Source of the DNA: Escherichia coli
GTDB taxonomy: Bacteria > Pseudomonadota > Gammaproteobacteria > Enterobacterales > Enterobacteriaceae
Length of the DNA stretch: 64,000 nt
Direction: 5' to 3' (one strand)
Assembly: GCA_902500205.1 (NCBI GenBank)
Contig: GCA_902500205.1_4868.1
The notes below the pieces were generated by a model that saw only the letters and a program-made list of their open reading frames with translations, did no database searches and was not told the origin of the DNA. Positions 2,246-39,244 of this stretch are shown piece after piece. Numbering within the stretch: position 1 is the first letter of the stretch; every line of letters begins with the position of its first letter. The position numbers and the translations under genes were made by a program.

Positions 2246-2304
2246 TACCCTAAAGTTTTTTACGTTAAGGGCACTGGGTATGAACCCGTGCCCAAAGTAA
2301 TCTG

Positions 2305-15164: not shown

Positions 15165-15170
15165 TTAAGC

Positions 15171-15210
15171 CCTCTTCTCCTCCTGGAGAAGAGGCTTCTT
15201 ATTTTTTTTA
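15171..15210 (+). terminator. Intrinsic terminator
   Basis: 'cctcttctcc-tcct-ggagaagagg' followed by 'cttcttatttttttta'. Confidence 0.8.
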
Positions 15211-15261
15211 TTACGTCTACGTAAATTACTGTGTAAGCACGACCCAAAAGGAATATAAAAA

Positions 15262-15900: not shown

Positions 15901-16382
15901 TGCTTGTTATTAATGTGGTCGAGGATAAGATTCCCGCGAATGTTTATCCTGAACTGGTTGAATGGGTACGCGACTTAAACAGTATTCGCGAGGAGCCTAT
16001 TAAACTCACGATGTTTGTTGAGGATGATATCGTACGGGGAATCATGGCATGGGAACCTGGCCATTTGGTCTATATGGTTGTGCCCGAGGAATCGCGACGA
16101 GGCGGTGTCGGTAGATTTATGCTTAAGTATCTTCAGCAGAACTCCGATCGTAAACATGTCAGCTGTCGTGTTCACCCGACCAACATTCCCGCGCTGGGAT
16201 TCTTTCACCAACAAGGCTTCCAGATTGACCGATGGTATATTGCTGCTGACGGCCAACGGTATTTTCGTATGACGAACTACAATGTTATTTCGTCACACAC
16301 GCCACCGGAGGAAAAGCTTTTAACTCATTACGCTGAAAGCGTTCCCATTTTTCTCTCGATGGCAGAAGGTCATTTCGTCTAA
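15900..16382 (+). CDS. GNAT-family N-acetyltransferase (1 of 3)
   Basis: Acetyl-CoA motif 'RRGGVGRFMLKYL'; typical size; GTG 15897 is an alternative start. Confidence 0.75.
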   Translation: MLVINVVEDKIPANVYPELVEWVRDLNSIREEPIKLTMFVEDDIVRGIMAWEPGHLVYMVVPEESRRGGVGRFMLKYLQQNSDRKHVSCRVHPTNIPALGFFHQQGFQIDRWYIAADGQRYFRMTNYNVISSHTPPEEKLLTHYAESVPIFLSMAEGHFV

Positions 16383-16399
16383 ACGAGCGAGAGTGTATA

Positions 16400-16876
16400 A
16401 TGATACGTGTTGCTTACGAAACACGAGATACGGATGGAACCCGTATAAACGTCATCCGCCGTGTGGAGCTTGTTCCTCAGCATGAATTGAATATTGCAGA
16501 CAGTTCGCTTAGGGGCACTCCTGTTAAGATTCTGAATCTTACGAGACGTTCTTTTCATCACAGTAAGACTTCACCAGCAATACGGTCCAGTAAAAGAAAA
16601 AGTTATGCCGATTTAAAACATCGGTTGTCCCGGCATTTTCGTCGGAGTGCCTGGAAGGCTTTAGTTGAGATTTTGGTTGACGAGCACCTTATCCAGAGGT
16701 TGGAGTGGGAAGAAGTTCTCAAGGAAGCGGGCTATCCAACAAAACCTTTCTCTTATCACTGGCATCACTTCAAAAAACAGTTCCATGATGCCTTACAGGT
16801 ATCGCCAAACACTCGCAACATGATTCACCGTTTGGAGAAAATGGACTGGCTTCTACCCTATCTGGAAGAGGACTAG
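16400..16876 (+). CDS. Hypothetical protein (158 aa)
   Basis: ORF with ATG start. Confidence 0.7.
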   Translation: MIRVAYETRDTDGTRINVIRRVELVPQHELNIADSSLRGTPVKILNLTRRSFHHSKTSPAIRSSKRKSYADLKHRLSRHFRRSAWKALVEILVDEHLIQRLEWEEVLKEAGYPTKPFSYHWHHFKKQFHDALQVSPNTRNMIHRLEKMDWLLPYLEED

Positions 16877-16878
16877 AT

Positions 16879-17268
16879 ATGATGCGTGCTGTATTAGCTG
16901 TGTTTATAATTTGCGTTACTACGTCAGTATACGCGTTTACTGTTCAGGACTTCCCGCAATACAAACCAATGTGGGAAACTGACGCACCTGTGAAATTCAG
17001 CGACAAAGATGAACCAGTCGTGACAGTGGAGAAGGGTGAGTTTGCCGTGGTCAACTACGGGCGTTCTGAACTGTGTCCGGGCGGTGGCTTTTATCTCGTT
17101 AACACAAAGCGCAAGACGTACCAGCCAATAGATGCCGGTACGTGTTCGTCGAAAGTTAAAGCGACAATTGCCCCGACAGTACGAAGACATCGCAGCGTTA
17201 ATACCCACCAGTTAACTTTTTGGGTAGGTAAAGAAATTTCCGCGCGGTATCCTTTGTACGATTATTAA
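16879..17268 (+). CDS. Small secreted/periplasmic protein (predicted signal peptide)
   Basis: N-terminus 'MMRAVLAVFIICVTTSVYA' resembles a Sec signal peptide. Confidence 0.7.
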   Translation: MMRAVLAVFIICVTTSVYAFTVQDFPQYKPMWETDAPVKFSDKDEPVVTVEKGEFAVVNYGRSELCPGGGFYLVNTKRKTYQPIDAGTCSSKVKATIAPTVRRHRSVNTHQLTFWVGKEISARYPLYDY

Positions 17269-17276
17269 ACACAGCG

Positions 17277-17312
17277 TATAGGGGCTTCGGCCCCTATACT
17301 GTTTATTATTTT
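17277..17312 (+). terminator. Intrinsic terminator (TTCG loop)
   Basis: 'tataggggc-ttcg-gcccctata' followed by 'ctgtttattatttt'. Confidence 0.8.
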
Positions 17313-17359
17313 CCTGTGAAGTATTATGACCCCCCTTAATCAAATACCAGGAGCGAGGC

Positions 17360-17977
17360 ATGTCTTTTGTTATTGACTTTAACCACCATCATAGTCAAAC
17401 CTTGCTCGATTTAGTCAATGCTTTTAATGCTGAAACCGTTTATACGCCCCTGACCACAGAACGTATCCGAGTGGAGAGTTATGGTCCACCGGAACCGGAC
17501 GGTCGTGTAAGTGCTTTGCTGACTAATAAGAGTAAGCCTGATGACTATGTGGTTGTACGCTACCGCAAATTGAGCCTCAATGATATAATCACGTTGAAGC
17601 CTGAACATCTCACGTGGTTTGATTTGTCGAAAGGTAAACCGGCCGATTTGCGTGTATGGTCCGAAGCCGCGATGGCCAGTTTTGAATCAGCCTGTGCAGA
17701 ACGTGGTATCATCGTAAGTAAGGCGTGGGAAAACCCTGCGCAATGCCACGTAGAGTACGACATCCTGACCGATCGATACATCCTCGTCTATGAATGTGAA
17801 TCGTTTGTTTACGAATCACGCACACGTATTACGCTACCGTACCATATCGGCCAAGACTTAACCAAGACAACGCTGCCTGGTCTGGAATACGACTTGGCTG
17901 GTTTCTGGGGGCGTAAGCTGTTAGAAGAAGTGACTATCACGAAGCTTAACGGTTTTCGTTATCGTGTGTTTGTTTAA
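17360..17977 (+). CDS. Hypothetical protein (205 aa)
   Basis: 'ccaggagcgagg' SD before ATG. Confidence 0.75.
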   Translation: MSFVIDFNHHHSQTLLDLVNAFNAETVYTPLTTERIRVESYGPPEPDGRVSALLTNKSKPDDYVVVRYRKLSLNDIITLKPEHLTWFDLSKGKPADLRVWSEAAMASFESACAERGIIVSKAWENPAQCHVEYDILTDRYILVYECESFVYESRTRITLPYHIGQDLTKTTLPGLEYDLAGFWGRKLLEEVTITKLNGFRYRVFV

Positions 17978-17981
17978 GACA

Positions 17982-18023
17982 CTACCCTCGCCCGTTTAGC
18001 GAGGGTAGGTATTTATTTTTTTC
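17982..18023 (+). terminator. Intrinsic terminator
   Basis: 'ctaccctcgc...gcgagggtag' followed by 'gtatttatttttttc'. Confidence 0.8.
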
Positions 18024-18058
18024 TTACGAATCGTCCACTCCGTATAGGAGGTAAGTCC

Positions 18059-18658
18059 ATGAAAAAGATTTATAAAATTGCGGTAATCGGTTCTCGGAAG
18101 ACTGATGAAGATACCATGTCTGAAATGTACATGCGATTGTTACGTGGGTTTAATGCGCTGCACGCCAAAGATTACACGATTCATTTTTCCTCTGGCGGCT
18201 GCTGGTGTGGTCCAGACCAATTGCAATTCCGATTTGCCCGACAGTGGGCGAATACAATCGACCAAGATACCGGCAAGAAAGTGGTGTGGGATGATGAGTT
18301 CATTTGTTACCTACCCGATGAGAAAAAGCTCTGGCTCAGGAAACAGAATCCCAACGTAGAGTTCCGTGTAATCCCTCAGGATGACCGCTATCGTGAGATA
18401 GTAGGTAAGCTTCATCCCGCGCCAGAAAAGCTCCAGGAGTTCGCCTGGGCGCTTCACGGGCGTAATCTGAATATAATTATGGGCGATGATTTAGCAACGC
18501 CTGTAGACGCAGTCTATTACTCTGCGCCTTTAGATAAACAAGGTAATCCGACCGGCGGTACTGCAATGGGCGTGAAATACGCTAAGCAGTGTGGTATTCC
18601 TTGTTACCACCATGCGCTTGAAGGACATCTGTGGCTTGAGAGCTTGTGCTTATTATGA
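18059..18658 (+). CDS. Rossmann-like protein with DprA/SLOG-like 'IAVIGSRK' motif (tentative)
   Basis: 'KIAVIGSRK' near the N-terminus and 'GNPTGGTAMGVKYAKQCGIPCY' near the C-terminus; 'aggagg' SD. Confidence 0.7.
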   Translation: MKKIYKIAVIGSRKTDEDTMSEMYMRLLRGFNALHAKDYTIHFSSGGCWCGPDQLQFRFARQWANTIDQDTGKKVVWDDEFICYLPDEKKLWLRKQNPNVEFRVIPQDDRYREIVGKLHPAPEKLQEFAWALHGRNLNIIMGDDLATPVDAVYYSAPLDKQGNPTGGTAMGVKYAKQCGIPCYHHALEGHLWLESLCLL

Positions 18659-18688
18659 CCACGTTGCCTTTAATCAGAGGTCGCTATT

Positions 18689-18961
18689 ATGCAAACTACC
18701 AGTTTAGCTCGTCGTTTGTGGGAAGCGTTCTTCCCTACGCCGTCAAAACCCATTAAGAAGGTGACTAGCCTTCGCTTGTTCCCAGGCACTGAAGATGAGT
18801 TCTTCGATTACCTGGAACGTCACGGTTTTGATTCGAAAGTCGCACCACAAGAAAATGACCCAATTCAGACAGTTTACACCACGCCGGATACGGGAGAGAT
18901 ATTTGCCTTGTGTGTTCGATGGCCACATCGCAACTACTACTATACTTTGACGCAGATGTAA
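18689..18961 (+). CDS. Small hypothetical protein (90 aa)
   Basis: ORF with ATG start. Confidence 0.6.
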   Translation: MQTTSLARRLWEAFFPTPSKPIKKVTSLRLFPGTEDEFFDYLERHGFDSKVAPQENDPIQTVYTTPDTGEIFALCVRWPHRNYYYTLTQM

Positions 18962-18971
18962 GGAGCAGGGG

Positions 18972-20105
18972 ATGTCGACGCTCGATTTAGATTTAGAAGT
19001 CCTGACTGACGACTACGATCGCCTGGTCGCACTCGAAGGTCTGGGAGTTAAGCCCGACTTCCCTGCGGTTTGCGCGATTCGTCAGCGTTGGTGCTTAACC
19101 GACGACGGTGAAGATATGTTGGTTGCTCGTGAATCGCGCGAAGCGATGGAGCGTGCTCAGTTTATGACTGATACTGACCCGCGGGCTGGCATCCATCGCG
19201 CAGCAGGGCGCATTACTGCGAAAGCTGTTAAAGGTACTGGAAAGTTAGTGGGAGCTGGACTAGGCGCAACCGCAAAGGGCGCGGGTAAACTTTCGAAAAA
19301 GCTCGCATTACGCTTTTACGATTTCGCGGAAGCGCTAGCGAAAGAACAAGCCGACCGTTTGAAAGAAATAACTTCGAAAGCCGCATTCATGGAACGTAAG
19401 CTCAATAAGCTCAAAGCACGAATGTCGTTATTGGATGACCACAAAACACTCGCTGCGGTCGACGTTCACACGAGTAGCTGGACGTCTAAAGTTTGCTTTG
19501 AAGATCGACCCGATTTTGAAGCGTGTGTTAAGTTTTCTAAACGAACAAATGCGTACGAAGGCGTCGTGCAAAAGTACACGGTTTACACACGCACCGCTCT
19601 GAAGAAAAGCAAAGCATTCGAAGGGCCAGGCTTAAAACAAATCAGCAAGTCCACGAACTGGGCAGTTAAGCGCGCTGCTGGGTTGCTTGGCATCATCGAT
19701 CCCTTTAAAAAGGTGGAAGCTTTTCCTGTCCCTGGAAATATCGTTGTGGTTGAGCACCATAGTGGTAAGGTCAGTTGGGCAATTGCGCGTGACGGTGAGT
19801 ATGGTGAAACCATTAAATCGCTGGATATGCATCAGTGTGGGAAAGCAATAGAGGCTGTGGAAGCACTTATCAAATCTATTGCAGCACGCGGAACAAAGAA
19901 CCGCGTTGTGGGTTACACCGGCATTTACGAAGAAGTGGAAGCGATGAAGTCCGAGCTTAAGAACCTGGAAGGGGATGAGCTGAAAGAAGCCACTTTGCGC
20001 TACCGCAATGCAATGGCAATGGAAGACGCATTCACCACGGCGTTGGTACGCGTGGCGGAGGGTCTAATGGAGTGGACGAAGCAATCGTTGGCTGAGGTGA
20101 AATGA
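18972..20105 (+). CDS. Hypothetical protein (377 aa), translationally coupled to the downstream GNAT
   Basis: 'taaggagcagggg' SD; stop TGA overlaps the GNAT start. Confidence 0.8.
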   Translation: MSTLDLDLEVLTDDYDRLVALEGLGVKPDFPAVCAIRQRWCLTDDGEDMLVARESREAMERAQFMTDTDPRAGIHRAAGRITAKAVKGTGKLVGAGLGATAKGAGKLSKKLALRFYDFAEALAKEQADRLKEITSKAAFMERKLNKLKARMSLLDDHKTLAAVDVHTSSWTSKVCFEDRPDFEACVKFSKRTNAYEGVVQKYTVYTRTALKKSKAFEGPGLKQISKSTNWAVKRAAGLLGIIDPFKKVEAFPVPGNIVVVEHHSGKVSWAIARDGEYGETIKSLDMHQCGKAIEAVEALIKSIAARGTKNRVVGYTGIYEEVEAMKSELKNLEGDELKEATLRYRNAMAMEDAFTTALVRVAEGLMEWTKQSLAEVK

Positions 20106-20569
20106 TGAAAATTGTTTTTGTCACCAAGCCCAACTCTCCGTATGGAAAGAAATACTACGCGGACTTGTTAGGACTACACAACAAGTTATACGACGATCAG
20201 AAAATAAAACTTGCCGACTTAAACGGTCGTGAAGGGTTTAATCAAATCTTAAAACTGGAGGAGGTTTGGGGTGAAGGTACGCTGTGCGCTTGCGCCGTTG
20301 ATGACCGTGGTGTGGCTGTTGGTTTCATCACCTTCGGCTACACCAAAAAGGGACAACGTTTCCTCTGGGTATATAACTTTTTTGTAGATGAATCGGTTCG
20401 TTCACAAGGCGTTGGCCATGAACTAATCGAAGCCGTAGAAAACTACGGCAAATCAAAAGGCTGCGCATGGATGCAGCTTAACGTGCTCGGTAATAATGAC
20501 CGTGCTATTGCGTTTTATGAACGTTTCGGTTTTCGAACTGAATACCAGGATATGGTAAAGGAGCTTTAA
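20102..20569 (+). CDS. GNAT-family N-acetyltransferase (2 of 3)
   Basis: Motif 'VRSQGVGHELIEAV' and 'AFYERFGF'. Confidence 0.8.
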   Translation: MMKIVFVTKPNSPYGKKYYADLLGLHNKLYDDQKIKLADLNGREGFNQILKLEEVWGEGTLCACAVDDRGVAVGFITFGYTKKGQRFLWVYNFFVDESVRSQGVGHELIEAVENYGKSKGCAWMQLNVLGNNDRAIAFYERFGFRTEYQDMVKEL

Positions 20570-20570
20570 C

Positions 20571-21179
20571 ATGGTGGCTGTCCGCAGCGTGCCACATCAG
20601 ACTGGCTCGCGATATACTTTTTGTGTAAAGCGTTTTGGGGCAAGAAATCGCCCTGGTTGGAAGGTGGTACGTGCGATGGGACAGTTCTGGCAAATACCAC
20701 CCGGCACGTTAAAATATTTTTCAGTAGACAGAATAATCCGGTTCTTAAACGCGGCTGACCCAAGTCAACGCTCCAGTTTTATGGCAGGGATTGTTTGTCG
20801 TCCCGATGGGAAAACACGCGATGCAACCACTCGTGGAATCTACTGGACAGGACAGAATGCGTTTCAGGTTGGCTTACCTTGCCTGAAGTGTGAAGTGACA
20901 CCGTTTAATGGTCCCTACGCCGATGCGCACTTCACCGGTATCTTTGTGTCGTTCCCAGACGACCCGTCTTTAAACTACTTTTTATCAGTGGACAAAGACG
21001 TCAGTATTGATACCTTTTACAAATACTTGTTGTTTTACAGCCGGTATATCCGCGTGACTCCTGTGCATGAAGATTGGTATTATAAAAATCCCTTGAACTA
21101 TGGGAGGGACAGGAGACTAGAAGGATGTTCTATCGAGAGCTTCAACTCTGTACCGCAGCGCTCCATGGCGCTAATGTGA
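20571..21179 (+). CDS. Hypothetical protein (202 aa)
   Basis: 'aaaggagc' SD before ATG. Confidence 0.7.
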   Translation: MVAVRSVPHQTGSRYTFCVKRFGARNRPGWKVVRAMGQFWQIPPGTLKYFSVDRIIRFLNAADPSQRSSFMAGIVCRPDGKTRDATTRGIYWTGQNAFQVGLPCLKCEVTPFNGPYADAHFTGIFVSFPDDPSLNYFLSVDKDVSIDTFYKYLLFYSRYIRVTPVHEDWYYKNPLNYGRDRRLEGCSIESFNSVPQRSMALM

Positions 21180-21496
21180 GCAAGAACGGGGACCTGGAAG
21201 ACGTCGCGCAAGCCTTACGGGTTGTGCCGGAGGTTGACCAGGTCGACATCGACGCTAAGTATTTAGGCGACGGCGTAAAGCGTATTCAGTTGACCGTGCG
21301 AGCCAAACATGGCAGCTGCTCGTTACATTTCCGAGTCAGTGCGGATTATTTCCTGGTACTGCGCTCCACATTCAGTCACGATGGTCGGACTCACCGGGTT
21401 CGGTGGATGCACGACATTACTAAATTTGGCTACCCGCTTGCAGAACAACGTAAAGTCGTCCATGACTTTATGGCTGCAGTCGTTGCGGGGTTTTAA
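21125..21496 (+). CDS. Hypothetical protein (123 aa); start uncertain
   Basis: Overlaps upstream gene by 55 nt if ATG 21125 is used; in-frame GTG 21176 is an alternative. Confidence 0.55.
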   Translation: MFYRELQLCTAALHGANVSKNGDLEDVAQALRVVPEVDQVDIDAKYLGDGVKRIQLTVRAKHGSCSLHFRVSADYFLVLRSTFSHDGRTHRVRWMHDITKFGYPLAEQRKVVHDFMAAVVAGF

Positions 21497-21508
21497 GGGG
21501 AAACTGTG

Positions 21509-22105
21509 ATGTCTGAGATGATTCTCGATTCGCTGTTTTTGATTACGGTTGCAAACATCAATAAAAACGGCAATCTTCCAGAATACGTAGACATAAGTCG
21601 TCATGGCTTTAAGCGTCGCTATCAAATCGGTAAGGTGTTAGAAATTGCCTGTTTAGTAACGAACATGCGTAGACCGGTGGAAGGCTGTAGCGTTAAACAT
21701 GCACAGATGATACTCGGACGTGCTATTTCAGAAGTACGTCGTAAGCGTCGTCGTGCACCGTATCGCTTTTATCCTAACTCTACCAAACAGGTGGTGGGCG
21801 AGGGTGAAGGTGTGGTTGATTTGCGCGAGGCCAGTTGTAATGTAGGCGGTATTGCACGTGACTGGTTAATGAGCATTATCAGTAAGCATCCACGTACACC
21901 TACGCCGCAAGAAGGACAGGCGGTACTCGCACTTATGCGTAAGACCCATTTGGTGATTACTGATACACCAAACCAGGCAGCACGAATGCAGCACTATTTG
22001 GCATGTCGTGGCTTCACCACACTTGCAGTACCTTCTGAATACACAGCTGATATTAAACTTCCGCCAGTCCCAGAGTGGTCTGAACCGACAGTTGATCATC
22101 AGTGA
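21509..22105 (+). CDS. Hypothetical protein with basic stretch 'RRKRRRAPYRF'
   Basis: ATG 21509 (track GTG 21506) after 'aagggga'. Confidence 0.7.
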   Translation: MSEMILDSLFLITVANINKNGNLPEYVDISRHGFKRRYQIGKVLEIACLVTNMRRPVEGCSVKHAQMILGRAISEVRRKRRRAPYRFYPNSTKQVVGEGEGVVDLREASCNVGGIARDWLMSIISKHPRTPTPQEGQAVLALMRKTHLVITDTPNQAARMQHYLACRGFTTLAVPSEYTADIKLPPVPEWSEPTVDHQ

Positions 22106-22110
22106 GTTAT

Positions 22111-22149
22111 ACCCACTCCTTCGGGAGTGGGTCGACTCTATTCTTTTTT
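22111..22149 (+). terminator. Intrinsic terminator (TTCG loop)
   Basis: 'acccactcc-ttcg-ggagtgggt' followed by 'cgactctattctttttt'. Confidence 0.85.
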
Positions 22150-22171
22150 GGATAGATGTTATCTTAGGGAG
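22150..22171 (+). promoter_or_regulatory. Conserved 22-bp promoter-like motif, copy 3
   Basis: 'ggatagatgttatcttagggag' abutting the terminator; 95 nt upstream of ATG 22267; leader holds two hairpins. Confidence 0.55.
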
Positions 22172-22266
22172 ACGTGCAAAAATTACGTTTCATCCTTAGC
22201 ATATGCTAGAAGCCGTTGTGAGTCGGTTAAAACTCACCAACTTAAACTTAAAAGCGAGTAAACAAA

Positions 22267-23031
22267 ATGTCAAAACTCAATAAAGCAGCAACCAAAGAAT
22301 GGCTTTCCGTACCTACCGCAGATGGTCAGTATCGCTACGTATTCACGTATGACGAAAATGACCTGACGGCAAAAGGTATTCCGCACATGTTAAGTCACAA
22401 ACTGATTAACAGCGTGACCGGTGCCACCTTAGTAGGTTCCGGCGGAAGGACAATCTTTTGTGCCCCCAGTTGGGATCAAACTGAACTGACCAAGAAAATG
22501 CTCGGTGAACTCCGGGCGGTTTCCGCACGTCTGTTCTTTAAGCTGATTGCCAGAAAACCGGCGCTATGGGATGCATGGTCTCAACACAATCTCGAGGCAT
22601 TGCGTGGGGAGTGTCTGAATTACGTATTGGTCGAAGAAGTGATTGATAACTTCTTCGCTAACGTGATGAAAACCGAACGACTGCGTAAGCCGAACACCGA
22701 CGGTTATTCGTTTGTCTCCGTTAAGAGCAGCGAACTGATTCGGGGTGAGTTTGCAGGGCATGTCCTTTCGGTAACTCGGAACCTGAGTTTCTTTGGCCAG
22801 CCTTTCAGTGAGCCAGTTGTTCAGGTAACTTATGATTTCCGTTTACCGTTTACTGTTCGGAATGAGTTTGACCCAGGTCAAGTTTCGTTGAAGTTTTTAT
22901 ATCCTCTCCAGTCATGGCCGTTATTGAAGAGGTTCTTAGCTGAGCCCCGTGTAGCTGCGGTGCTGCAAGCGTGGATTGATTCATGGCCAGAAGGCATTGA
23001 GGAAAAATCGAAAACGCGAGTTGACTTCTAA
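22267..23031 (+). CDS. Hypothetical protein (254 aa)
   Basis: ORF downstream of promoter motif copy 3. Confidence 0.75.
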   Translation: MSKLNKAATKEWLSVPTADGQYRYVFTYDENDLTAKGIPHMLSHKLINSVTGATLVGSGGRTIFCAPSWDQTELTKKMLGELRAVSARLFFKLIARKPALWDAWSQHNLEALRGECLNYVLVEEVIDNFFANVMKTERLRKPNTDGYSFVSVKSSELIRGEFAGHVLSVTRNLSFFGQPFSEPVVQVTYDFRLPFTVRNEFDPGQVSLKFLYPLQSWPLLKRFLAEPRVAAVLQAWIDSWPEGIEEKSKTRVDF

Positions 23032-23037
23032 GTAAGC

Positions 23038-23073
23038 TAGGCACTCTTCGGAGTGCCTATTATTTTTTTTTTC
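23038..23073 (+). terminator. Intrinsic terminator (TTCG loop)
   Basis: 'taggcactc-ttcg-gagtgccta' followed by 'ttatttttttttttc'. Confidence 0.85.
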
Positions 23074-23136
23074 TTTACGTATGCTCGCTATATTGTGACA
23101 CCACTACAATTAATTAAACTTTTGGGGAAGAATAAA

Positions 23137-23760
23137 ATGTTAAACTCAGTGGCGCTGGATGGTCCAGATTTTTCTGGCAAATCAACACTCGCGAAAATGA
23201 TTCAAGCGATGTTGCGCTCCGCTGGCGTTAATGTCATCATCGTCAATCACCCGACGAATACCACTGAAGCCGGTATTAGTGCACGCTCTCTGGTTATCCA
23301 GCACGCTTCTAACGAACGCATTGCTAAAGCGATGTGTCTGGATTTCCAATACACGATGGATTTCGTTGTACCAGAGCACGATGTCGTTATTTTTGACCGT
23401 TTTTGTCAATCGACTATTGTCTACCAGGGCGTCGATGGTAAAGGGGAAGTTTTCCGTTCGCGGGTATTAGACCACATTAACGCACCAAAGCTTTACGTGG
23501 CAACCGATGTATCTTACGAAACCGCCACAGAACGCTTTAAGAAGCGCGTAGAGGCCCAGGGCAAGAACTGGGATGATGAGGTACTGACAGCGAAGTATCT
23601 GCGCTCACAGACTGATTGGGACGCGTTACGCGACCACTACCGTTTTGCTTTCCACATCACCACAGATGGCGGCGATAAGTTCCCGCTGATGCGTGTTACG
23701 GCTGACGACGATATAGCGTTACAAGCCGCGCGTATCGTTGAACGTATTCTGGCAGGTTAG
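23137..23760 (+). CDS. tmk: Thymidylate (dTMP/dNMP) kinase-like protein
   Basis: P-loop 'LDGPDFSGKSTLA' and 'DRFCQSTIVYQG' match Tmk signatures; 'ggggaag' SD before ATG 23137; track start 23053 lies inside the terminator. Confidence 0.7.
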   Translation: MLNSVALDGPDFSGKSTLAKMIQAMLRSAGVNVIIVNHPTNTTEAGISARSLVIQHASNERIAKAMCLDFQYTMDFVVPEHDVVIFDRFCQSTIVYQGVDGKGEVFRSRVLDHINAPKLYVATDVSYETATERFKKRVEAQGKNWDDEVLTAKYLRSQTDWDALRDHYRFAFHITTDGGDKFPLMRVTADDDIALQAARIVERILAG

Positions 23761-23765
23761 TTGTA

Positions 23766-23805
23766 CCCCTCTTACCTTCGGGTAAGAGGGTATTGTCTTT
23801 TTTAC
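23766..23805 (+). terminator. Intrinsic terminator (TTCG loop)
   Basis: 'ccctcttacc-ttcg-ggtaagaggg' followed by 'tattgtctttttt'. Confidence 0.85.
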
Positions 23806-23851
23806 AGATCGTAACAGTCTTATGCTTTTTGCTTCCAGTCCACTAAATTTC

Positions 23852-23873
23852 AGATATATATTACTTAGGTGAG
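23852..23873 (+). promoter_or_regulatory. Conserved 22-bp promoter-like motif, copy 4
   Basis: 'agatatatattacttaggtgag'; 49 nt upstream of ATG 23923; identical to copy 7. Confidence 0.55.
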
Positions 23874-23922
23874 AGTTACTACTAAACTCTCTAATCGACT
23901 ATTAATCTAAAGGAGTATTCTA

Positions 23923-24288
23923 ATGCGTTTTAAACATCAAACCGTTGTGTTGGCAAAGAAAGCATTTCTGGTTCGTCTCTCTTACATTATTACTCGTGTC
24001 ACTGCGAAGGATGTTACGCAGAAAGACATTGCATTGTTGGTAGGCTGCTCACCGTCACAAATCTCTGCGATTAAAAATGAACGCGAGAAAGCCGTGACTA
24101 TCGAAACTCTGATGCGTGTTGCCGATACACTGCGCCTGAATTACGAAATCGTTTACCGTTCCATTAACGGCAAATGCCGCCATAGCTTCAAAATTGAATC
24201 CTGCACCGACTACATGAATAACTGTCCTATCCGGGTACGAGAAACAGGACTTAAAGTCATGGCACGTAAACCTTCTGCAGTGATGTAG
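23923..24288 (+). CDS. Helix-turn-helix (XRE/Cro-like) transcriptional regulator (putative)
   Basis: 'QKDIALLVGCSPSQISAIKNEREKAVTIETLMRVADTL' resembles an XRE-type HTH; strong 'aaaggag' SD. Confidence 0.65.
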   Translation: MRFKHQTVVLAKKAFLVRLSYIITRVTAKDVTQKDIALLVGCSPSQISAIKNEREKAVTIETLMRVADTLRLNYEIVYRSINGKCRHSFKIESCTDYMNNCPIRVRETGLKVMARKPSAVM

Positions 24289-24299
24289 GGAGCAAACGT

Positions 24300-24686
24300 A
24301 TGAATTGGTTTGTAAATGGTATCACCCGTCGCGTGATGACGGAAGAGGATGATCGATGTAAACATCTTAAAGTGGGCTCTATAGCCCCGCGCTATACGGC
24401 AGAGTGCGACCCATGGGGCCGCGAAACGTACTACATGTGCGAGAACTGCTGGGAAAAGCTGCAGGCTGAAATTGCAGCTGAAGAAGTGGTCTGCGACGAT
24501 TGCAAAGGTACCTTCCCGAAACGAGATACCGTTGAATGGAAATGGTACGACTTTGACCCCAGTCAAGGGGATAAAGAACTTTGTATCTGTAATAACTGCG
24601 TGTCTTTACCGACACATTTAAACCGTGTAGAGAATGACCGTCGGGCATTTGAACACGACTTTCCAGAAGCAGCTTTCTGGGATTAA
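24300..24686 (+). CDS. Cys-rich zinc-ribbon protein
   Basis: Cys pairs 'CENCWEKL', 'CDDCKG', 'CICNNC'. Confidence 0.7.
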   Translation: MNWFVNGITRRVMTEEDDRCKHLKVGSIAPRYTAECDPWGRETYYMCENCWEKLQAEIAAEEVVCDDCKGTFPKRDTVEWKWYDFDPSQGDKELCICNNCVSLPTHLNRVENDRRAFEHDFPEAAFWD

Positions 24687-24712
24687 CTAGTGTAAACCTT
24701 AAGGAGTATACC

Positions 24713-25369
24713 ATGGCGAAGGCCCCTAAAACTGTAGCAAAAGATTCAATGGCAAGCAGCGCGGTTAAATCCACAAAAACGCGCACCACTGAATCCACGC
24801 GTACATCTAGCATTCCTAAACCGGATGTAATTGTACCGATCAGCGAGCGTCTGAAAACAATTCACATCGAGCGCGAATATCCGATTGACCTTGGTCAGGA
24901 AATCGTTGCGGTTAACCTTGGTAGCGACGTACGCTTTACCATCTATAAAGGCGCGCATCTGAACAACATGGTGCTAACCCGTGGCGATGAAGTTATCGGT
25001 CTGTCTCGTTACGACACGCAAATCGAAAACATCTATCCGGTGTTTGCAGTAGCGATGTTGCGTTTGTTTATGCAGGATAAAGCCGACCTTTGTGGTCAGC
25101 TTGCGGGTATGGCGGATCGTGTTGGTCATATTCTGCCGACGCTGGTGAAACTGTACCCAGTTACGATTGACGTGGCGTTTACTACGGTAGACAACAACCA
25201 CGGTTATATCGTACTGACCAAAGACGGTAAAGTTATCGCTGGTAATCTGACTGATAACGAAGTGCAGAAGCATATGGACAAATTTGCGTTCATGGTGAAT
25301 CGCTTGGCGCACGTCAGTGTCAAACATTCCGAAACTTGGACGACGCTTGTCTCCAAACCGGAACTGTAA
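24713..25369 (+). CDS. Hypothetical protein (218 aa)
   Basis: 'ttaaggag' SD before ATG. Confidence 0.75.
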   Translation: MAKAPKTVAKDSMASSAVKSTKTRTTESTRTSSIPKPDVIVPISERLKTIHIEREYPIDLGQEIVAVNLGSDVRFTIYKGAHLNNMVLTRGDEVIGLSRYDTQIENIYPVFAVAMLRLFMQDKADLCGQLAGMADRVGHILPTLVKLYPVTIDVAFTTVDNNHGYIVLTKDGKVIAGNLTDNEVQKHMDKFAFMVNRLAHVSVKHSETWTTLVSKPEL

Positions 25370-25372
25370 TCA

Positions 25373-25410
25373 TTAAGGGGTCTTCGGACCCCTTAATTTT
25401 TTGTCTTTTT
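25373..25410 (+). terminator. Intrinsic terminator (TTCG loop)
   Basis: 'ttaaggggtc-ttcg-gaccccttaa' followed by 'ttttttgtcttttt'. Confidence 0.85.
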
Positions 25411-25458
25411 ACGCATTATCCTCATGTTGTGACAGCAATACCTTTTGAGGGCATTACA

Positions 25459-26457
25459 ATGAAAACTGTGGCTAAATTGTTCCGCAGCAGCATTCGCTCT
25501 GCCGAGTTCCAAAATAACGTCGGTAGCGATACTGTACGAGCACGCCGCCTAAAAGAGTTTCTAAAGGACGAGACTTATTCTGTTTACGTGGTGAAGAATA
25601 AAGAAACCTGGGAGGGTTATTTAGTGGCCACCTATCGACACGGTGACCCTACACTAACCTGTCACTATTTTGAGGAGTTTGTACCTGGGGCGTTCGATAA
25701 AGTTGGTTTGGCCCTTGTGCTCGACCATACCGGATTCGAATATATGTCGTGTCCAGCACCTACTGACGATGTTGAACAAAAACTGGTCGAAAAAGGGTTT
25801 GTTCTTTCAGATATCGTTTGGGCATGTCATTCTAAACTGTTTGACAAAGTAATCACCGCATCGGAAATCAAGATTATTTCTGGTGATGCATACGCAGAAC
25901 TTACCAAGGAAGATAAAGACGTTATCCTGAATTTGATTAGCGGTGCAATTTGCGAAGAGCTAGAATACGATATGCGTGGCTACTATACGCACATTGGCCC
26001 GTTAGCAGAAACAGTAATAGCAAGAATTCAGCACGCTAATGTGGAGACTGCAATTTGGCGAGACGGCCATGATATCGTCGGTATTGCCCAGATGCGCTTG
26101 GTTACACCAGGCGTCGTTGAACTTTCTGGTTTAACCGTTGCACCAACACACCGTAAACGTGGCATTGGCCGCCGGCTAATGGGCGCGCTATTCGATTTCG
26201 CACAACGTCATTCCGACCAAGTCTATATTGAAACAGCTGCTGATAATAATCCAGCAAATCACCTGTACGGCAACATCTTACGTTGCAAGCAGGTACTGCG
26301 TACACTAACGTTGAAACGCGATCCTGAACTTATTAGCTGGAAACGGGTGAATGGGAACCGCGCCGATCGAGTGCTGAAAGAAGAACCTAGCATTCCGGTG
26401 GAGACTACAACCAGGCTGACTATCAGTGATATGTTTCAATCTGGCATGAGAGGATGA
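25459..26457 (+). CDS. Two-domain protein: unknown N-terminal domain fused to a C-terminal GNAT acetyltransferase (3 of 3)
   Basis: C-terminal 'LSGLTVAPTHRKRGIGRRLMGALFDFA'; true start ATG 25459 (track 5' extension overlaps the terminator). Confidence 0.75.
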   Translation: MKTVAKLFRSSIRSAEFQNNVGSDTVRARRLKEFLKDETYSVYVVKNKETWEGYLVATYRHGDPTLTCHYFEEFVPGAFDKVGLALVLDHTGFEYMSCPAPTDDVEQKLVEKGFVLSDIVWACHSKLFDKVITASEIKIISGDAYAELTKEDKDVILNLISGAICEELEYDMRGYYTHIGPLAETVIARIQHANVETAIWRDGHDIVGIAQMRLVTPGVVELSGLTVAPTHRKRGIGRRLMGALFDFAQRHSDQVYIETAADNNPANHLYGNILRCKQVLRTLTLKRDPELISWKRVNGNRADRVLKEEPSIPVETTTRLTISDMFQSGMRG

Positions 26458-26463
26458 TATCGG

Positions 26464-27282
26464 GTGATAAGACCAATTTTAAAATGGATGGGTGGTAAGA
26501 GTCGCGTACTGCCCGAGTTGCTACAGGTGCTTCCAGATGCTGAGTATTTCGTTGAACCGTTTGTGGGTGCAGGGTCAGTGTTTTTAAACACTAAATACCC
26601 GAACTATATTCTCGGCGACACGAACCCAGACTTAATCGAGTTACTGACCATGGCGCGCGATCGTCCGGAAGCGCTGATTCTGGAAGCAAAGGCGCTCTTT
26701 GCAAATGGGCTGGACCGCGGTCTGTACATGAAACGGCGTGAGGAATTTAACAGCGAGACAACCACGGGGAAACCTAATCTCCAGCGCGCTGCGATGTTCC
26801 TGTATCTTACACGTCATGGTTACAACGGCTTGTGCAGATACAATCAGTCAGGTGGATTTAATGTCCCGTATGGTCAACATCCGAACGGTGCCTATTTCCC
26901 TGAAGAGGAAATTCTGGCGTGGGCAAAACGTTGTTCGGAAACCAACGTCGAGCTGCTCTGCGCCGACTTCCGCGACATCCTAAATAAGTGCCCATCTAAC
27001 GCAGTGATATACGCTGACCCGCCATACATCCCACTTTCGGATACGGCTAAACATGCGCAGTATCACAGCAAAGAATTTTCACAAGCTGACCACCGCGAGT
27101 TAGCGAAACTTTTAAAACAACAAGCTGCCGATGGCAATAAGGTCGTTCTGTCAAACGCAGATACGTTACTCACACGCGATATTTATTACGGCTTTACTTG
27201 GCGCGAAGTTCAGGTAGGTCGATATATGTCTGCGGATGCGAATAAGCGTAAAGCGGTGACGGAGCTAATCGGCACCTTATAA
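26464..27282 (+). CDS. dam: DNA adenine methyltransferase (Dam-type, N6-adenine)
   Basis: Near-collinear Dam signatures: 'KWMGGK', 'EPFVGAGSVFLNT', 'FLYLTRHGYNGLCRYN', 'IYADPPY'. Confidence 0.9.
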   Translation: MIRPILKWMGGKSRVLPELLQVLPDAEYFVEPFVGAGSVFLNTKYPNYILGDTNPDLIELLTMARDRPEALILEAKALFANGLDRGLYMKRREEFNSETTTGKPNLQRAAMFLYLTRHGYNGLCRYNQSGGFNVPYGQHPNGAYFPEEEILAWAKRCSETNVELLCADFRDILNKCPSNAVIYADPPYIPLSDTAKHAQYHSKEFSQADHRELAKLLKQQAADGNKVVLSNADTLLTRDIYYGFTWREVQVGRYMSADANKRKAVTELIGTL

Positions 27283-27291
27283 GGTACCAAC

Positions 27292-28095
27292 ATGCAACTA
27301 TTTAATCTATACGGTATGGACAAAAACGACCTGACCGTAGAGTTTAGTGGTCGGTTGACCACCTTGGGGCAACTCCGCGAACGGATTCAAGATTTGCGAC
27401 CCGTCGCAGACCAAGAAGACGATCATTGGTTAGTGTTGAGCAATAGCGGTCGTGCGCAAATGTATTTTCGTGGATGTCGTTCAGGTATTGTTTACTACAT
27501 CTACGAGCTGCACGTGCTCTCCGAGCCCCTGTTCCACGAGTGGAAGCGTTTAACGCGACTCCTGGAAGTGCAGATGCTCGATATTACCTGCTTTCCGCAT
27601 GACACTGAGCACGCAGCACTATACCAGCGCCTGGGGTTCGAAGCTGTAACGAAGCGTGTGGAGATTACTGTCAGTCCGAAATACGGTTTTACGTCAGACC
27701 CATCGGTTGTCCCGTTGGAGACATTGTCATTAGAACAAACCCAGGATGTTTGCTATCTAATGCGACCTACGCTAAAAGACGCAGGTACGCGTGAGATGTT
27801 GGGTGAATTAGCAAATGGTTTTGTCTCTGCGTTCGTGGGGTTGCACGGCCAGAAACCGTTTTCATTAATGCTTTATAAGGAATTCCCGAAGAGCATCATT
27901 ACTGAGCAATTCTGCTGCCAAACTTTTGACCCGGTTGCTTACTCGGTAGAGTTTCTAAAACACTACCACGCTATTTTGCATTTGGCGGGACAGAAAGGTA
28001 AGAAGGTCAACATGGGTGTTGCGATAGAGCACGAGTTTCCTTCTATCGAAGGGTTAGAGTATCGTGTAATCACGCATCACTACACCCTTGCGTAA
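27292..28095 (+). CDS. Hypothetical protein (267 aa)
   Basis: ORF with ATG start. Confidence 0.75.
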   Translation: MQLFNLYGMDKNDLTVEFSGRLTTLGQLRERIQDLRPVADQEDDHWLVLSNSGRAQMYFRGCRSGIVYYIYELHVLSEPLFHEWKRLTRLLEVQMLDITCFPHDTEHAALYQRLGFEAVTKRVEITVSPKYGFTSDPSVVPLETLSLEQTQDVCYLMRPTLKDAGTREMLGELANGFVSAFVGLHGQKPFSLMLYKEFPKSIITEQFCCQTFDPVAYSVEFLKHYHAILHLAGQKGKKVNMGVAIEHEFPSIEGLEYRVITHHYTLA

Positions 28096-28104
28096 GGAGA
28101 GAAT

Positions 28105-28917
28105 ATGCTGAGAGTTATCGAACGCACGGAGAGGATTCTGGACCGAACGTGGTTGGAAGACCGTAAAGCGTTATCGTTGTTAAACGATATCGATCCTTCC
28201 ACGTTACAAGATGAACGTCGTCTTTACTACCGAATCTTTGAAGTTTTCAGTCGGGACACAGTTGCGCCCGACGCGATCGTGCTCTGTCTGGACCACGGAT
28301 ACATGTTAGAAGTTATCAATATGGTTCGTGCTTTAGACGCCCAGTTAACCTCGCTTGCGGATGCTTTACTCCGCTCAGCGGGGTGTAACTACGCGATGCA
28401 TTTTACTCGTTCTGAAGGGGACGAATATGCTCGCATGGGCTTTTGTTGCGAAACGATAAACTACCGCAAAATTAATACATTGGTGCCTAGCCACGATGAG
28501 GATTTCTGTGGGGATGTCAGTTCGTTGTTCGATAGTAAGAAAGCGTTCTTGGATTGGGTTAGAATGCTTTACGGTAAAAGCTCTATCTACTCAACGCTCG
28601 TTACGGGCGGGAGGATGATGTCGTGGCGGAACAGCGATAGTTACAAACTGACAGTGCTCACACATCGTGGACAACGCTGGGTTATTGGTGGATGGTTTAC
28701 CGCAGAAGGGGTGGTTACTCTAAGCCGAGAGGAGTTCGGGCTGTTGATGCACTGTATCCAGTCTGAATTACCGGTGGGGGATGAACTGATTTACACCTAC
28801 CACCAATATACTGGGGGGCCTGCCGCAATGTGGTTATTAGAAAACGGTTGGCTGCCTGAAAGTTATGTGTACGGACGTACTCTGAAAACTAGTAATGGAG
28901 AAGATAATGCAAATTAA
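28105..28917 (+). CDS. Hypothetical protein (270 aa)
   Basis: 'gtaaggagag' SD before ATG. Confidence 0.75.
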   Translation: MLRVIERTERILDRTWLEDRKALSLLNDIDPSTLQDERRLYYRIFEVFSRDTVAPDAIVLCLDHGYMLEVINMVRALDAQLTSLADALLRSAGCNYAMHFTRSEGDEYARMGFCCETINYRKINTLVPSHDEDFCGDVSSLFDSKKAFLDWVRMLYGKSSIYSTLVTGGRMMSWRNSDSYKLTVLTHRGQRWVIGGWFTAEGVVTLSREEFGLLMHCIQSELPVGDELIYTYHQYTGGPAAMWLLENGWLPESYVYGRTLKTSNGEDNAN

Positions 28918-29185
28918 TCGTACAGTGTCGAAGTCTAAAGAAGTCGTTTACAACGTTGAAGACGGTGATGTAATGCAGTTTCGTGCCGTCATTGACGAAC
29001 AGCACGTACTCCAAGTCGTTTATTCGAAAGAAGAAATGACTCGCGCACATAGCCGCGTGTTAGAAAAACTCGTTGCGAAAGCCAAACAGCGCGACGGTAT
29101 TAAATCCTACAACGTCATGTACGGTTATCAGTTACGTGAGGTGGAAGGGGAGCTGTTAATCACCCCTGTTCCGGTAACGGCGTAA
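28907..29185 (+). CDS. Small hypothetical protein
   Basis: ATG 28907 after 'ggaga' (track start 28895). Confidence 0.6.
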   Translation: MQINRTVSKSKEVVYNVEDGDVMQFRAVIDEQHVLQVVYSKEEMTRAHSRVLEKLVAKAKQRDGIKSYNVMYGYQLREVEGELLITPVPVTA

Positions 29186-29225
29186 TTCGCCATTGTATGA
29201 CCCTTAAATACCGTTGAGGTTAACT

Positions 29226-29708
29226 ATGGATATGATCGAATTAGGTCAGCTCCCTCAGCACGATTTTGATTTAGGCGTGCGTCATGAGGAAGGGGCCGAC
29301 GCGAACACACTTATGGCCCGCTACTACGAGCTACTGACCGGTCAACCGTTGGACGATGAGCATATCAACCGTTTTGAAAAACTGTTGGCACAACTCATCA
29401 CCTCTAACGCAGAACGCATTGGCATGTTGAACGAAATGAACTTTGCCGATGTAGAGCCATCAGACGCTCAGAAGATTCTTATCGATGGTCCTGTGCCAAG
29501 CGATGAAGTACAAGACCTTCTGGCAGGTATCCGTGCAGGCTTCGATGAAGCTGCTGAGAAATACGCGGAAGAGCTGGCAGATGTCGATTTGGCTGCGCCG
29601 GTTGACCCGAATCCGTCTGCAGAGGAGACTGCAGCTGCGAAATTGAAACTCGCACGCTTTATCTGTGCTGCTGTCTTGACAGACGACCGTGAAGAAAACC
29701 AACTGTAA
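29226..29708 (+). CDS. Acidic hypothetical protein
   Basis: ATG 29226 (track TTG 29214); D/E-rich. Confidence 0.7.
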   Translation: MDMIELGQLPQHDFDLGVRHEEGADANTLMARYYELLTGQPLDDEHINRFEKLLAQLITSNAERIGMLNEMNFADVEPSDAQKILIDGPVPSDEVQDLLAGIRAGFDEAAEKYAEELADVDLAAPVDPNPSAEETAAAKLKLARFICAAVLTDDREENQL

Positions 29709-29714
29709 GGCCCG

Positions 29715-29750
29715 CCTCCTTGCCCACGGGTGAGGAGGTCCCTTTTTATT
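29715..29750 (+). terminator. Intrinsic terminator
   Basis: 'cctccttgcc-cacg-ggtgaggagg' (two G-U pairs) followed by 'tccctttttattt'. Confidence 0.7.
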
Positions 29751-29804
29751 TACATCAGTCCACTAACTTATGTGAAACAACCCACGTAATGAGGAATTAA
29801 GAGA

Positions 29805-30122
29805 ATGTGGTTAAGTGCTATTCATCGTGACCTGCCAAAACGTGAAGTGACCCTTTCTGTCGATGCGGAACCGATTACCGTTGGTGTCGCTAACTTCGAC
29901 CGTATGGAGGAAGGGCAGTATGTCGTGGTGGACAACGATGAAAACGAATTCATGTTATTCCATCCCGAAGTTGATGCGTCTGAAATCCGCGAGGGTTCTA
30001 TCTTGTTTTCTTGGCAAGACAAAGAAACTAAACAGTGGATGTGGTGCGTTGCTAACACAACCGATGAAAAAGGTACCGCGTATGCCCCAGGACAGCTTCA
30101 TGTCGAACCTAAACCCCATTGA
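29805..30122 (+). CDS. Small hypothetical protein (105 aa)
   Basis: ORF with ATG start. Confidence 0.65.
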   Translation: MWLSAIHRDLPKREVTLSVDAEPITVGVANFDRMEEGQYVVVDNDENEFMLFHPEVDASEIREGSILFSWQDKETKQWMWCVANTTDEKGTAYAPGQLHVEPKPH

Positions 30123-30414
30123 GCCCACGCTGACGCACCAGGAACTGCACGTCCGTTTTATTCGGGCGTTCACACCCCCGTTAGGTGGTGAGGTACACGA
30201 TCGTTCCGTGGTTGCAGAAGTTAAAGGTATCGGCGAAGAACTAATGACACTGTCTAATATTGTGACGGGTGTTGAGTTCACGTTACCGTTAAACGTATTT
30301 CGGTTTATTCCGCGCGTAAACGAAACACTGCTCATCGACCGTGTGCATCATCGGATTATGGCGCAGGTACATCCTAGACGTAAAGAGTATGTGCGCTTAG
30401 AGATGATGGTTTAA
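30082..30414 (+). CDS. Small hypothetical protein; start uncertain
   Basis: Track frame 29863-30414 overlaps the previous gene; ATG 30082 after 'aaagg' (or ATG 30100) is more likely. Confidence 0.5.
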   Translation: MPQDSFMSNLNPIEPTLTHQELHVRFIRAFTPPLGGEVHDRSVVAEVKGIGEELMTLSNIVTGVEFTLPLNVFRFIPRVNETLLIDRVHHRIMAQVHPRRKEYVRLEMMV

Positions 30415-30427
30415 CGCACGACTTTTC

Positions 30428-30449
30428 AGATAGATGTTATTTTACTGAA
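30428..30449 (+). promoter_or_regulatory. Conserved 22-bp promoter-like motif, copy 5
   Basis: 'agatagatgttattttactgaa'; 27 nt upstream of ATG 30477. Confidence 0.5.
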
Positions 30450-30476
30450 CCTAACTGTAAAGAAAGGAAAAAGTAG

Positions 30477-30782: not shown

Positions 30783-30788
30783 GTAGTC

Positions 30789-30828: not shown

Positions 30829-30848
30829 AACCCTCTGGGGGATATACC

Positions 30849-34626: not shown

Positions 34627-35022
34627 GTGAAATTGATTATGCCTAAAACCGTTCCCAATCAGGATATGGTTACGACTACACTGTTTTCTGAATCATTACG
34701 CAACTCTGTACGTCAGACCGCTTCACGTCTAGACGTGGCAGTTGAAGAACTCGACCCTGAAGTCTTCATGAAGTATGCGTTTATTGCAGAAGGTTACGCG
34801 ATCGCCCTGAGTTATGCGCGGTATGTCGATGACGTGACAGAAGCTAAACGTTATTTAGAAGGCTGTTGTCAAGTTTTCCGTGAAGAAATCACCGAGATGG
34901 AGATGGTTGACCGTGGCTTACCTGAATTTGTAAAGGTGGGTTACGATAAGCTGTTGCAATCCATCGCGGATGAGATCAAACGTCGCGGGTTAACTGTGGT
35001 GCACAGCGCTACACTACACTAA
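34627..35022 (+). CDS. Hypothetical protein (131 aa)
   Basis: 'aaggagag' SD, GTG start. Confidence 0.7.
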   Translation: MKLIMPKTVPNQDMVTTTLFSESLRNSVRQTASRLDVAVEELDPEVFMKYAFIAEGYAIALSYARYVDDVTEAKRYLEGCCQVFREEITEMEMVDRGLPEFVKVGYDKLLQSIADEIKRRGLTVVHSATLH

Positions 35023-39188: not shown

Positions 39189-39244
39189 CCTCTGAAATTT
39201 ACGTTTCAATCAGAGCTTATGTCATGTATTAAGGAGCAATTAAA

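Follow-up and report, generated by a model that had tools for sequence, protein, structure and literature searches.

The window, that is, the whole stretch of 64,000 nucleotides analysed here, was assigned by megablast to the SPN3US group of Salmonella and Escherichia jumbo phages (Seoulvirus); it shows 97-98% identity to vB_EcoM_EC001 and SPN3US over 25 kb and corresponds to the SPN3US genome from about position 70380 onward. Phages of this group are relatives of phiKZ, with two multisubunit RNA polymerases and a phage nucleus (PMC7598289, PMC13282480). Several RNA polymerase beta-like genes are annotated in SPN3US, and the sigma-like subunit GP68 of phiKZ has a very divergent homologue in this genome (BLASTP E 2e-13, 19% identity), which is syntenic in that it adjoins an SbcD-like gene.

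Two intergenic regions of the window contain, on the + strand, exact copies of TTTACG-N14-TGTGACA (23074-23100 and 25408-25434), as recorded in an earlier note on this DNA; the pattern has no match in 100 dinucleotide-preserving shuffles of the window. Both copies lie behind terminator T-tracts, as described in that note, the hairpins being rich in G+C (hairpin plus T-tract at 23038-23059 and 25372-25397), the first upstream of a tmk-like gene (ATG 23137; Pfam Thymidylate_kin, E 4e-16) and the second upstream of a GNAT gene (ATG 25459; Acetyltransf_1, E 2e-14). The weaker copy noticed at the same time is real as well, with TTACG at 15211-15215, 14 nt, TGTG at 15230-15233 and another 29 nt to ATG 15262.

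Reading all intergenic gaps of the window revealed variants in which TGTG is replaced by TATG and, sometimes, TTACG by TTACA, and the full motif can be written as a W-rich run followed by TTAC(G/A)-N14-T(A/G)TG. The ACA after TGTG, which the earlier note had included in the consensus, is not general, the informative parts being TTAC(G/A) and T(A/G)TG, and its three copies were an undercount: with the relaxed consensus, the window holds eight intergenic copies. These sites are given below as candidate promoters of the middle type, together with the AT-rich 22-bp elements, which are (T)CAGATAGATGTTATCTTAG-like and presumed to be early-type, and an intragenic match (window coordinates; lower case letters precede the TTAC(G/A) box).

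2105-2126, + strand: AT-rich 22-bp element
2256..2282, + strand: candidate middle-type promoter of RefSeq gp190; tttt TTACG ttaagggcactggg TATG; 77 nt before the start at 2359
2303-2324, + strand: AT-rich 22-bp element, between the gp190 middle-type site and the start at 2359
15207..15233, + strand: candidate middle-type promoter of gene 15262-15900 (SPN3US RefSeq gp179); ttta TTACG tctacgtaaattac TGTG; predicted start G 15233, 29 nt before the ATG
22148-22169, + strand: AT-rich 22-bp element, upstream of the gp167 middle-type site
22179..22205, + strand: candidate middle-type promoter of RefSeq gp167; aaaa TTACG tttcatccttagca TATG; 62 nt before ATG 22267
23071..23097, + strand: candidate middle-type promoter of tmk; tctt TTACG tatgctcgctatat TGTG; predicted start G 23097, 40 nt before ATG 23137
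23798..23824, + strand: candidate middle-type promoter of the Cro/C1-type HTH gene; tttt TTACA gatcgtaacagtct TATG; 99 nt before ATG 23923
23850-23871, + strand: AT-rich 22-bp element, between the HTH-gene middle-type site and ATG 23923
25405..25431, + strand: candidate middle-type promoter of the GNAT-Dam operon; tttt TTACG cattatcctcatgt TGTG; predicted start G 25431, with ATG 25459 28 nt on
29746..29772, + strand: candidate middle-type promoter of RefSeq gp156; ttat TTACA tcagtccactaact TATG; 33 nt before ATG 29805
30426-30447, + strand: AT-rich 22-bp element
34794..34816, + strand: intragenic TTACR-N14-TRTG match, upstream run not W-rich; probably a chance match
39165-39186, + strand: AT-rich 22-bp element, upstream of the gp141 middle-type site
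39195..39221, + strand: candidate middle-type promoter of RefSeq gp141; aaat TTACG tttcaatcagagct TATG; 24 nt before ATG 39245
43710-43731, + strand: AT-rich 22-bp element

The AT-rich, AGATAGATGTTATCT-like 22-bp element, from which the earlier note had set the bipartite sequence apart, is indeed a separate entity, with seven window copies of its own and no overlap with the bipartite sites. It fits the description of the early promoters used by the virion polymerase in phiKZ-related phages (PMC7598289), and we presume that it plays this role here. Four gaps, all in the window, hold both types of element, the early-type one lying upstream in two of them and downstream in the other two. The annotated genes downstream of the bipartite motif are non-structural and include tmk, the GNAT-Dam operon and the gene at 23923-24288, which encodes an HTH_3 protein of the Cro/C1 type; elsewhere in SPN3US, the motif precedes genes for an SMC-like protein, a 3'-5' exoribonuclease and an HslV-like peptidase.

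The 5' untranslated region of the gp167-family gene (ATG 22267) additionally contains a conserved stem-loop, TGAGT-cggttaaa-ACTCA, preceded by GCCG (22219-22236). Its orthologs were located in the relatives (L008 19092, L009 19093, L010 18316, L011 19101, L012 24384 and 25177), with the loop kept (CGGUUAAA or CGGGCAAA) and compensatory changes in the stem (TGCGT/ACGCA, TGTGC/GCACA, CTGTC/GACAG, CACGC/GCGTG). In the window, Asesino, phiEaH2, Caitlin and Huxley, the stem-loop lies about 7-14 nt past the predicted middle start. It has no match in Rfam and looks like a protein-binding RNA operator.

Spacing and distribution of the bipartite motif

The pattern TTACR-N14-TRTG matches the window nine times, on the + strand in every case and in intergenic DNA in eight, compared with a mean of 2.57 and a maximum of 7 in the shuffles; the other spacings from 8 to 21 give 0-4 matches each. 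A genome-wide search with the spacing constraint, as proposed in the earlier note, was performed on SPN3US, the whole genome being assembled from six pieces, with 264 annotated coding sequences. Spacing 14 yielded 35 matches (29 on the + strand and 6 on the - strand), whereas each of 17 other spacings yielded 0-9, with a genome-wide background of about 5 per spacing. The enrichment is intergenic: intergenic DNA makes up 6.4% of the genome and holds 24 of the 35 matches, but just 0-2 matches at each of the 17 other spacings (Poisson P ~ 2e-28). Furthermore, the 4-mer located 14 nt downstream of WWWTTTAC[GA] is TATG or TGTG in 15 of the 21 sites tallied, and therefore the two boxes are truly coupled.

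In the logo of the 24 SPN3US sites, with positions counted from the predicted start, a W-rich stretch occupies -26 to -23 (W W W T), TTAC is at -22 to -19, where it is fixed by the search pattern, and T is preferred at -17; no conservation was seen in the spacer or beyond +2. The -2 position is G in a third of the sites (TGTG) and A in the rest (TATG). The nine core positions appear to be near obligatory because variants with one mismatch show no enrichment at spacing 14 (18 matches versus 9-26 at other spacings); for the same reason, weaker variants are not callable from the sequence. The exact 27-nt pattern of the earlier note, allowing up to two mismatches, gave 4 matches versus 2.2 expected and was uninformative because it included non-conserved positions. 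A TTACG...TATA site before a DprA-like gene (about 18025) was dropped, being not conserved in relatives. In an enrichment analysis of 6-mers in upstream regions, TTTACG did not rank among the top 30 words, which were dominated by T-runs, Shine-Dalgarno sequences and early-promoter words. The information resides in the bipartite arrangement.

Two features pointed out in the earlier note held locally and not beyond. Extra matches inside the spacer are present, at 7 of the 14 positions (binomial P = 0.038), but they carry little weight because they are not kept in relatives, where spacer identity is 0.38. Likewise, adjacency to a terminator is true of both exact copies but incidental, given that a terminator-like hairpin with a T-tract lies directly upstream of only 8 of the 24 sites genome-wide. 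A same-strand start codon follows the final G at 24-99 nt (median 32) in 17 of the 24 SPN3US intergenic sites, and the remaining 7 have no annotated start within 100 nt.

Two further observations concern SPN3US itself. Five middle-type motifs are clustered in the gene-poor first 3 kb of NC_027402 (at 295, 528, 1139, 2772 and 2818), and one of them lies about 90 nt upstream of an annotated tRNA gene (2933-3002). Separately, in 93 upstream gaps that contain neither early nor middle motifs, TATG occurs 32 times in the sense and 14 times in the antisense orientation, 17 of these being TATGA, an apparent twofold bias to the sense strand. The gaps that appear enriched in TATG include those of structural genes (sheath, RefSeq gp096/gp095, gp093 and gp004), which suggests that phiKZ-like late promoters consisting of a bare TATG initiator might precede structural genes of SPN3US.

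Conservation in related phages

We compared 40 kb around the tmk orthologue in each of seven relatives, pEa_SNUABM_29, Asesino, phiEaH2, Caitlin, Huxley, Kwan and Cronobacter phage CR5, in which tmk identity ranges from 76% down to 37%. In six of the seven, a peak at spacing 14 is present on the coding strand (3-7 matches; other spacings mostly 0-2, occasionally 3-4). The matches are found at orthologous places, the genes that follow being the counterparts of gp179, gp167, tmk, the HTH gene, GNAT, gp156 and gp141, and for most of these genes the distance to the annotated start is about 23-86 nt. Four genera thus keep the boxes and the spacing, namely, Seoulvirus (pEa_SNUABM_29), Erskinevirus, Machinavirus and Wellingtonvirus. 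Across 56 cross-phage pairs, identity is 0.38 in the spacer and 0.37 downstream; the box identity of 1.0 follows by construction from picking the sites by pattern, so that core conservation is partly circular, and the meaningful result is that an exact match is present at the orthologous place at all.

The GNAT site is exact in pEa_SNUABM_29, Asesino, phiEaH2, Caitlin, Huxley and Kwan. The tmk site is exact in pEa_SNUABM_29, Caitlin and Huxley and carries one mismatch in Asesino and phiEaH2 (cTACG or aTACG) and in Kwan (TTTG). Orthologs of the gp179 site were found in pEa_SNUABM_29, Asesino, phiEaH2, Caitlin and Kwan, with a single change (aTACG) in Huxley; those of the gp167 site, in Asesino, phiEaH2, Caitlin and Huxley; those of the HTH-gene site (23798..23824), in pEa_SNUABM_29, Caitlin and Huxley; those of the gp156 site, in pEa_SNUABM_29, Asesino, phiEaH2, Huxley and Kwan; and those of the gp141 site, in pEa_SNUABM_29, Asesino and phiEaH2. 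Between the window and SPN3US, all five substitutions within the eight sites fall outside the nine core positions. The motif is not universal in the wider group, given that the 40 kb examined in the more distant CR5 (73365-113913) contain zero TTACR-N14-TRTG sites. In this phage, tmk abuts the upstream gene, leaving no promoter gap.

The choice between A and G at -2 is kept per gene across the four genera (identity 0.91). TGTG is characteristic of gp179, tmk and GNAT (window 15230-15233, 23094-23097 and 25428-25431), and TATG of gp167, HTH, gp156 and gp141 (22202-22205, 23821-23824, 29769-29772 and 39218-39221), as well as of the site at 2279-2282. This hints at two functional sub-classes of the motif, which may differ in strength or timing.

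A possible annotation problem was noticed in Huxley, where the annotated start of gp112 (L011 about 19094-19102) lies 8 nt past the predicted middle start and before the hairpin of the untranslated region, and a Shine-Dalgarno-like AGGAG is located about 40 nt downstream of it; the annotated start is probably too far upstream.

A candidate promoter and the alternative explanations

What is observed is a strict, oriented, spacing-locked, intergenic and conserved bipartite DNA motif that has the geometry of the middle promoters of phiKZ. For these, the motif 5'-AAanTTACc-3', centred at about -24, is given within Yakunina et al. (PMC4666361; Ceyssens 2014 as cited there), and at P62M and P78M, TATG is also correctly placed at the start (PMC4666361). 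In differential RNA-seq of phiKZ, 28 start sites were preceded by a motif with a TAC core after an A-rich run, its centre lying 22 nt upstream of the start, and the 5' untranslated regions were typically 31-40 nt long (PMC8244752). ONT-cappable-seq assigned 33 starts in phiKZ to the middle and 66 to the late type (PMC10914365); in 201phi2-1, it identified 13 starts of the middle type (PMC11512511). The bipartite motif has the TTAC box and the A/T-rich run about 22-24 nt before the predicted start; SPN3US has genes for two multisubunit RNA polymerases, one virion and one non-virion, with the GP68-like subunit among them; and the motif shares gaps with the AT-rich early motif of the virion polymerase (vRNAP) without overlapping it. 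The definition of a phiKZ late promoter, TATG with no upstream element, does not apply to it, the TTACR box being invariant and at a fixed spacing. In the phiKZ genome, P78M reads AAAATTACC-N14-TATG, in the same register as TTACG-N14-TRTG, and the direct comparison with phiKZ is limited to this promoter; P62M was not located in the gap read. A 50-kb segment of phiKZ shows no peak of TTAC...TATG spacing, and thus the obligatory initiator is not universal to the class; in a loose search of phiKZ for AAnnTTAC(C/T), the AT-rich background swamped the signal.

Of the two possibilities offered in the earlier note, a second promoter class or a regulator binding site, the first is favoured by the strand and spacing specificity, the intergenic location, the conservation and the phiKZ geometry. 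We consider it likely, from these sequence properties, that the motif is a phage-specific promoter, the counterpart in SPN3US-like phages of the 'middle' class of the phiKZ-related phages (Chimalliviridae). Our literature search found no promoter, start-site or transcriptome description for SPN3US-group phages, and where transcription starts in these phages, its 'middle' timing and which polymerase or factor is responsible are inferred here.

In such a promoter, the A/T-rich run and TTAC(G/A) would together span about -26 to -18 and T(A/G)TG would cover -3 to +1, the 14 nt between them not being conserved, and transcription would start at the final G. The late promoter of phiKZ is TATG with G as +1, and in the cryo-EM structure of the promoter complex, TATG on the non-template strand is recognised by the beta-like GP123, and the sigma-like GP68 grips the DNA backbone of the duplex upstream, at about -17 to -24, with its N-terminal domain (PMC12809450). 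By analogy, the non-virion multisubunit RNA polymerase of the phage might bind T(A/G)TG via the beta-like lobe, and the -22 box would lie on the upstream duplex, within the stretch held by the sigma-like subunit; the reader of this box could be either the divergent GP68 homologue itself or a separate middle-stage factor. The rigid 14-nt spacing would then reflect the fixed distance between these two contacts. The promoter would drive non-structural genes (tmk, the GNAT-Dam operon and HTH here; SMC-like, exoribonuclease and HslV elsewhere), and where it stands in tandem with an early promoter, expression could be extended into later infection.

A more specific version of the mechanism, in which the holoenzyme of the non-virion polymerase (nvRNAP) of SPN3US, Erskinevirus and Machinavirus alone reads the bipartite promoter, with the GP68-like subunit on TTACG and the beta-like lobe on T(A/G)TG, is possible but appears doubtful to us. 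It has a counter-example in phiKZ, the purified nvRNAP of which is inactive in vitro on phiKZ middle promoters, including P78M despite its TATG (PMC4666361). Because the purified enzyme does not use middle promoters, Antonova et al. expect an extra factor at these promoters, and they keep RNA processing as an alternative (PMC10612078). If the holoenzyme did suffice, 'middle' and 'late' promoters would share one enzyme and differ only in the upstream box, the conserved A or G at -2 would encode promoter strength or timing, and the question of who transcribes the middle genes of jumbo phages would become directly testable in vitro.

RNA processing would account for the motif without a promoter if an endoribonuclease cut read-through or early transcripts near the junction of TRT and G, making the 5' ends of the downstream mRNAs. 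This option has been left open for phiKZ middle transcripts (PMC10612078), and the motif would indeed be transcribed at many sites, since 15-16 of the 24 SPN3US sites have no preceding terminator and the window sites at 22183 and 39199 lie downstream of an early-type promoter. However, 8 of the 24 sites are located directly behind strong hairpin and T-tract terminators, where little upstream RNA is expected, and at two sites the early promoter of the gap comes after the motif. The sites have no fold in common, although local hairpins occur at a few of them (mean MFE z = -0.88, heterogeneous), Rfam has 0 matches at E <= 1 in 22000-25600, the motif-linked 5' ends of phiKZ come from a TEX-based analysis of primary start sites (PMC8244752), and the 3' box is the initiator of a structurally characterised promoter (PMC12809450). 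We accordingly regard processing as improbable. We think it quite improbable, too, that the motif is an operator at which a phage DNA-binding regulator represses or times transcription, although an HTH_3 protein is encoded in the cluster (23923-24288) and could be such a regulator, and the -22 box could be protein-bound, a notion that overlaps with the factor-dependent version of the promoter reading. The two boxes do not form a dyad (TTTACG would have to be paired with CGTAAA, its reverse complement, and not with TRTG), the motif strictly follows the orientation of the downstream gene and stands at a promoter-like distance from it, most of the gaps with the motif have no other promoter-like signal, and the geometry is that of mapped phiKZ promoters (PMC8244752).

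TTTACG matches the host sigma-70 -35 hexamer TTGACA at 4 of 6 positions, but recognition as a host promoter seems highly unlikely: a sigma-70 scan of 14500-31000 found no site at the six motif copies and 17 sites overall, compared with 22.2 in shuffles, the sequence found 16-18 nt downstream, such as GACACC, does not resemble a -10 hexamer, and the biology of SPN3US-like phages counts against this reading. That both copies noticed initially follow terminator T-tracts could indicate that the similarity is part of the terminators or a product of chance, but chance is excluded by the shuffle, spacing and intergenic statistics, the motif follows a terminator in just the 8 of 24 cases, and the boxes are conserved across genera at a fixed spacing, whereas the terminator sequences differ, so that this explanation is hardly credible.

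A 2020 review considered the middle and late promoters of these phages not predictable bioinformatically (PMC7598289), and the enzyme or factor reading the middle promoters of jumbo phages is described as unknown in reviews (PMC7598289, PMC10612078). The signal described here can be located from the sequence alone because nine of its positions hardly vary and a single spacing is allowed, and, read as a promoter, it would define a regulon of about 24 promoters in SPN3US. The physical coupling of the middle box to a late-type initiator argues that the non-virion polymerase initiates there and makes the sites well suited as substrates for transcription in vitro and for pulling down factors. The annotation of operons and start codons could be improved in SPN3US, a jumbo phage of Salmonella in wide use as a model, and in its relatives from Erwinia, and the question addressed is the switch from early to middle and late transcription in phiKZ-like nucleus-forming phages.

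Comparison with known phage promoters

The closest likeness is to the middle promoters of phiKZ, with which the motif shares the TTAC core, the A/T-rich run before it, the same distance from the start (here, a predicted one), the position before non-early genes, the possibility of a tandem arrangement with an early promoter (seen at PHIKZ054 in phiKZ and in four gaps here) and the occurrence in a phage with two multisubunit RNA polymerases. The differences are that the base after TTAC is G or A here and C or T in phiKZ; that the upstream run is often T-rich here, whereas it is A-rich in phiKZ; that T(A/G)TG is present in every copy here at an invariant spacing but in only some of the phiKZ promoters; and that the motif here is information-rich enough to be detected without transcription mapping. 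With the late promoters of phiKZ (T-3 A T G+1), the motif shares the sequence and the presumed position, -3 to +1, of T(A/G)TG. Unlike it, these promoters lack a conserved upstream box, which is obligatory here at -22, and G at -2 is tolerated here, whereas mutagenesis of P119L showed that all four positions of TATG are needed (PMC4666361).

The middle promoters of 201phi2-1 belong to the same class by their authors' comparison with phiKZ, our comparison with them being at the level of this assignment and not base by base. A tRNA is driven by a middle promoter in 201phi2-1, which resembles the motifs about 90 nt upstream of the tRNA gene in SPN3US. The middle promoters of T4 combine a MotA box at -30 with a sigma-70 -10 element. 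The analogy to these is functional only: a stage-specific upstream box, a fixed distance to an initiation element and an added factor; in T4, the host polymerase is used through sigma appropriation by AsiA/MotA, and there is no homology of sequence or protein.

Phage AR9 offers another short bipartite promoter read by a related non-virion polymerase, in that its late promoters (AACA-N6-TA/G on the template strand) are used by the nvRNAP with gp226; the sequence and spacing differ, however, recognition there is uracil-dependent, and AR9-type phages have no middle class (PMC10612078). The promoter class to which we tentatively assign the motif is thus known already, and the twist here is that the middle box is always joined to a late-type initiator, at a single spacing.
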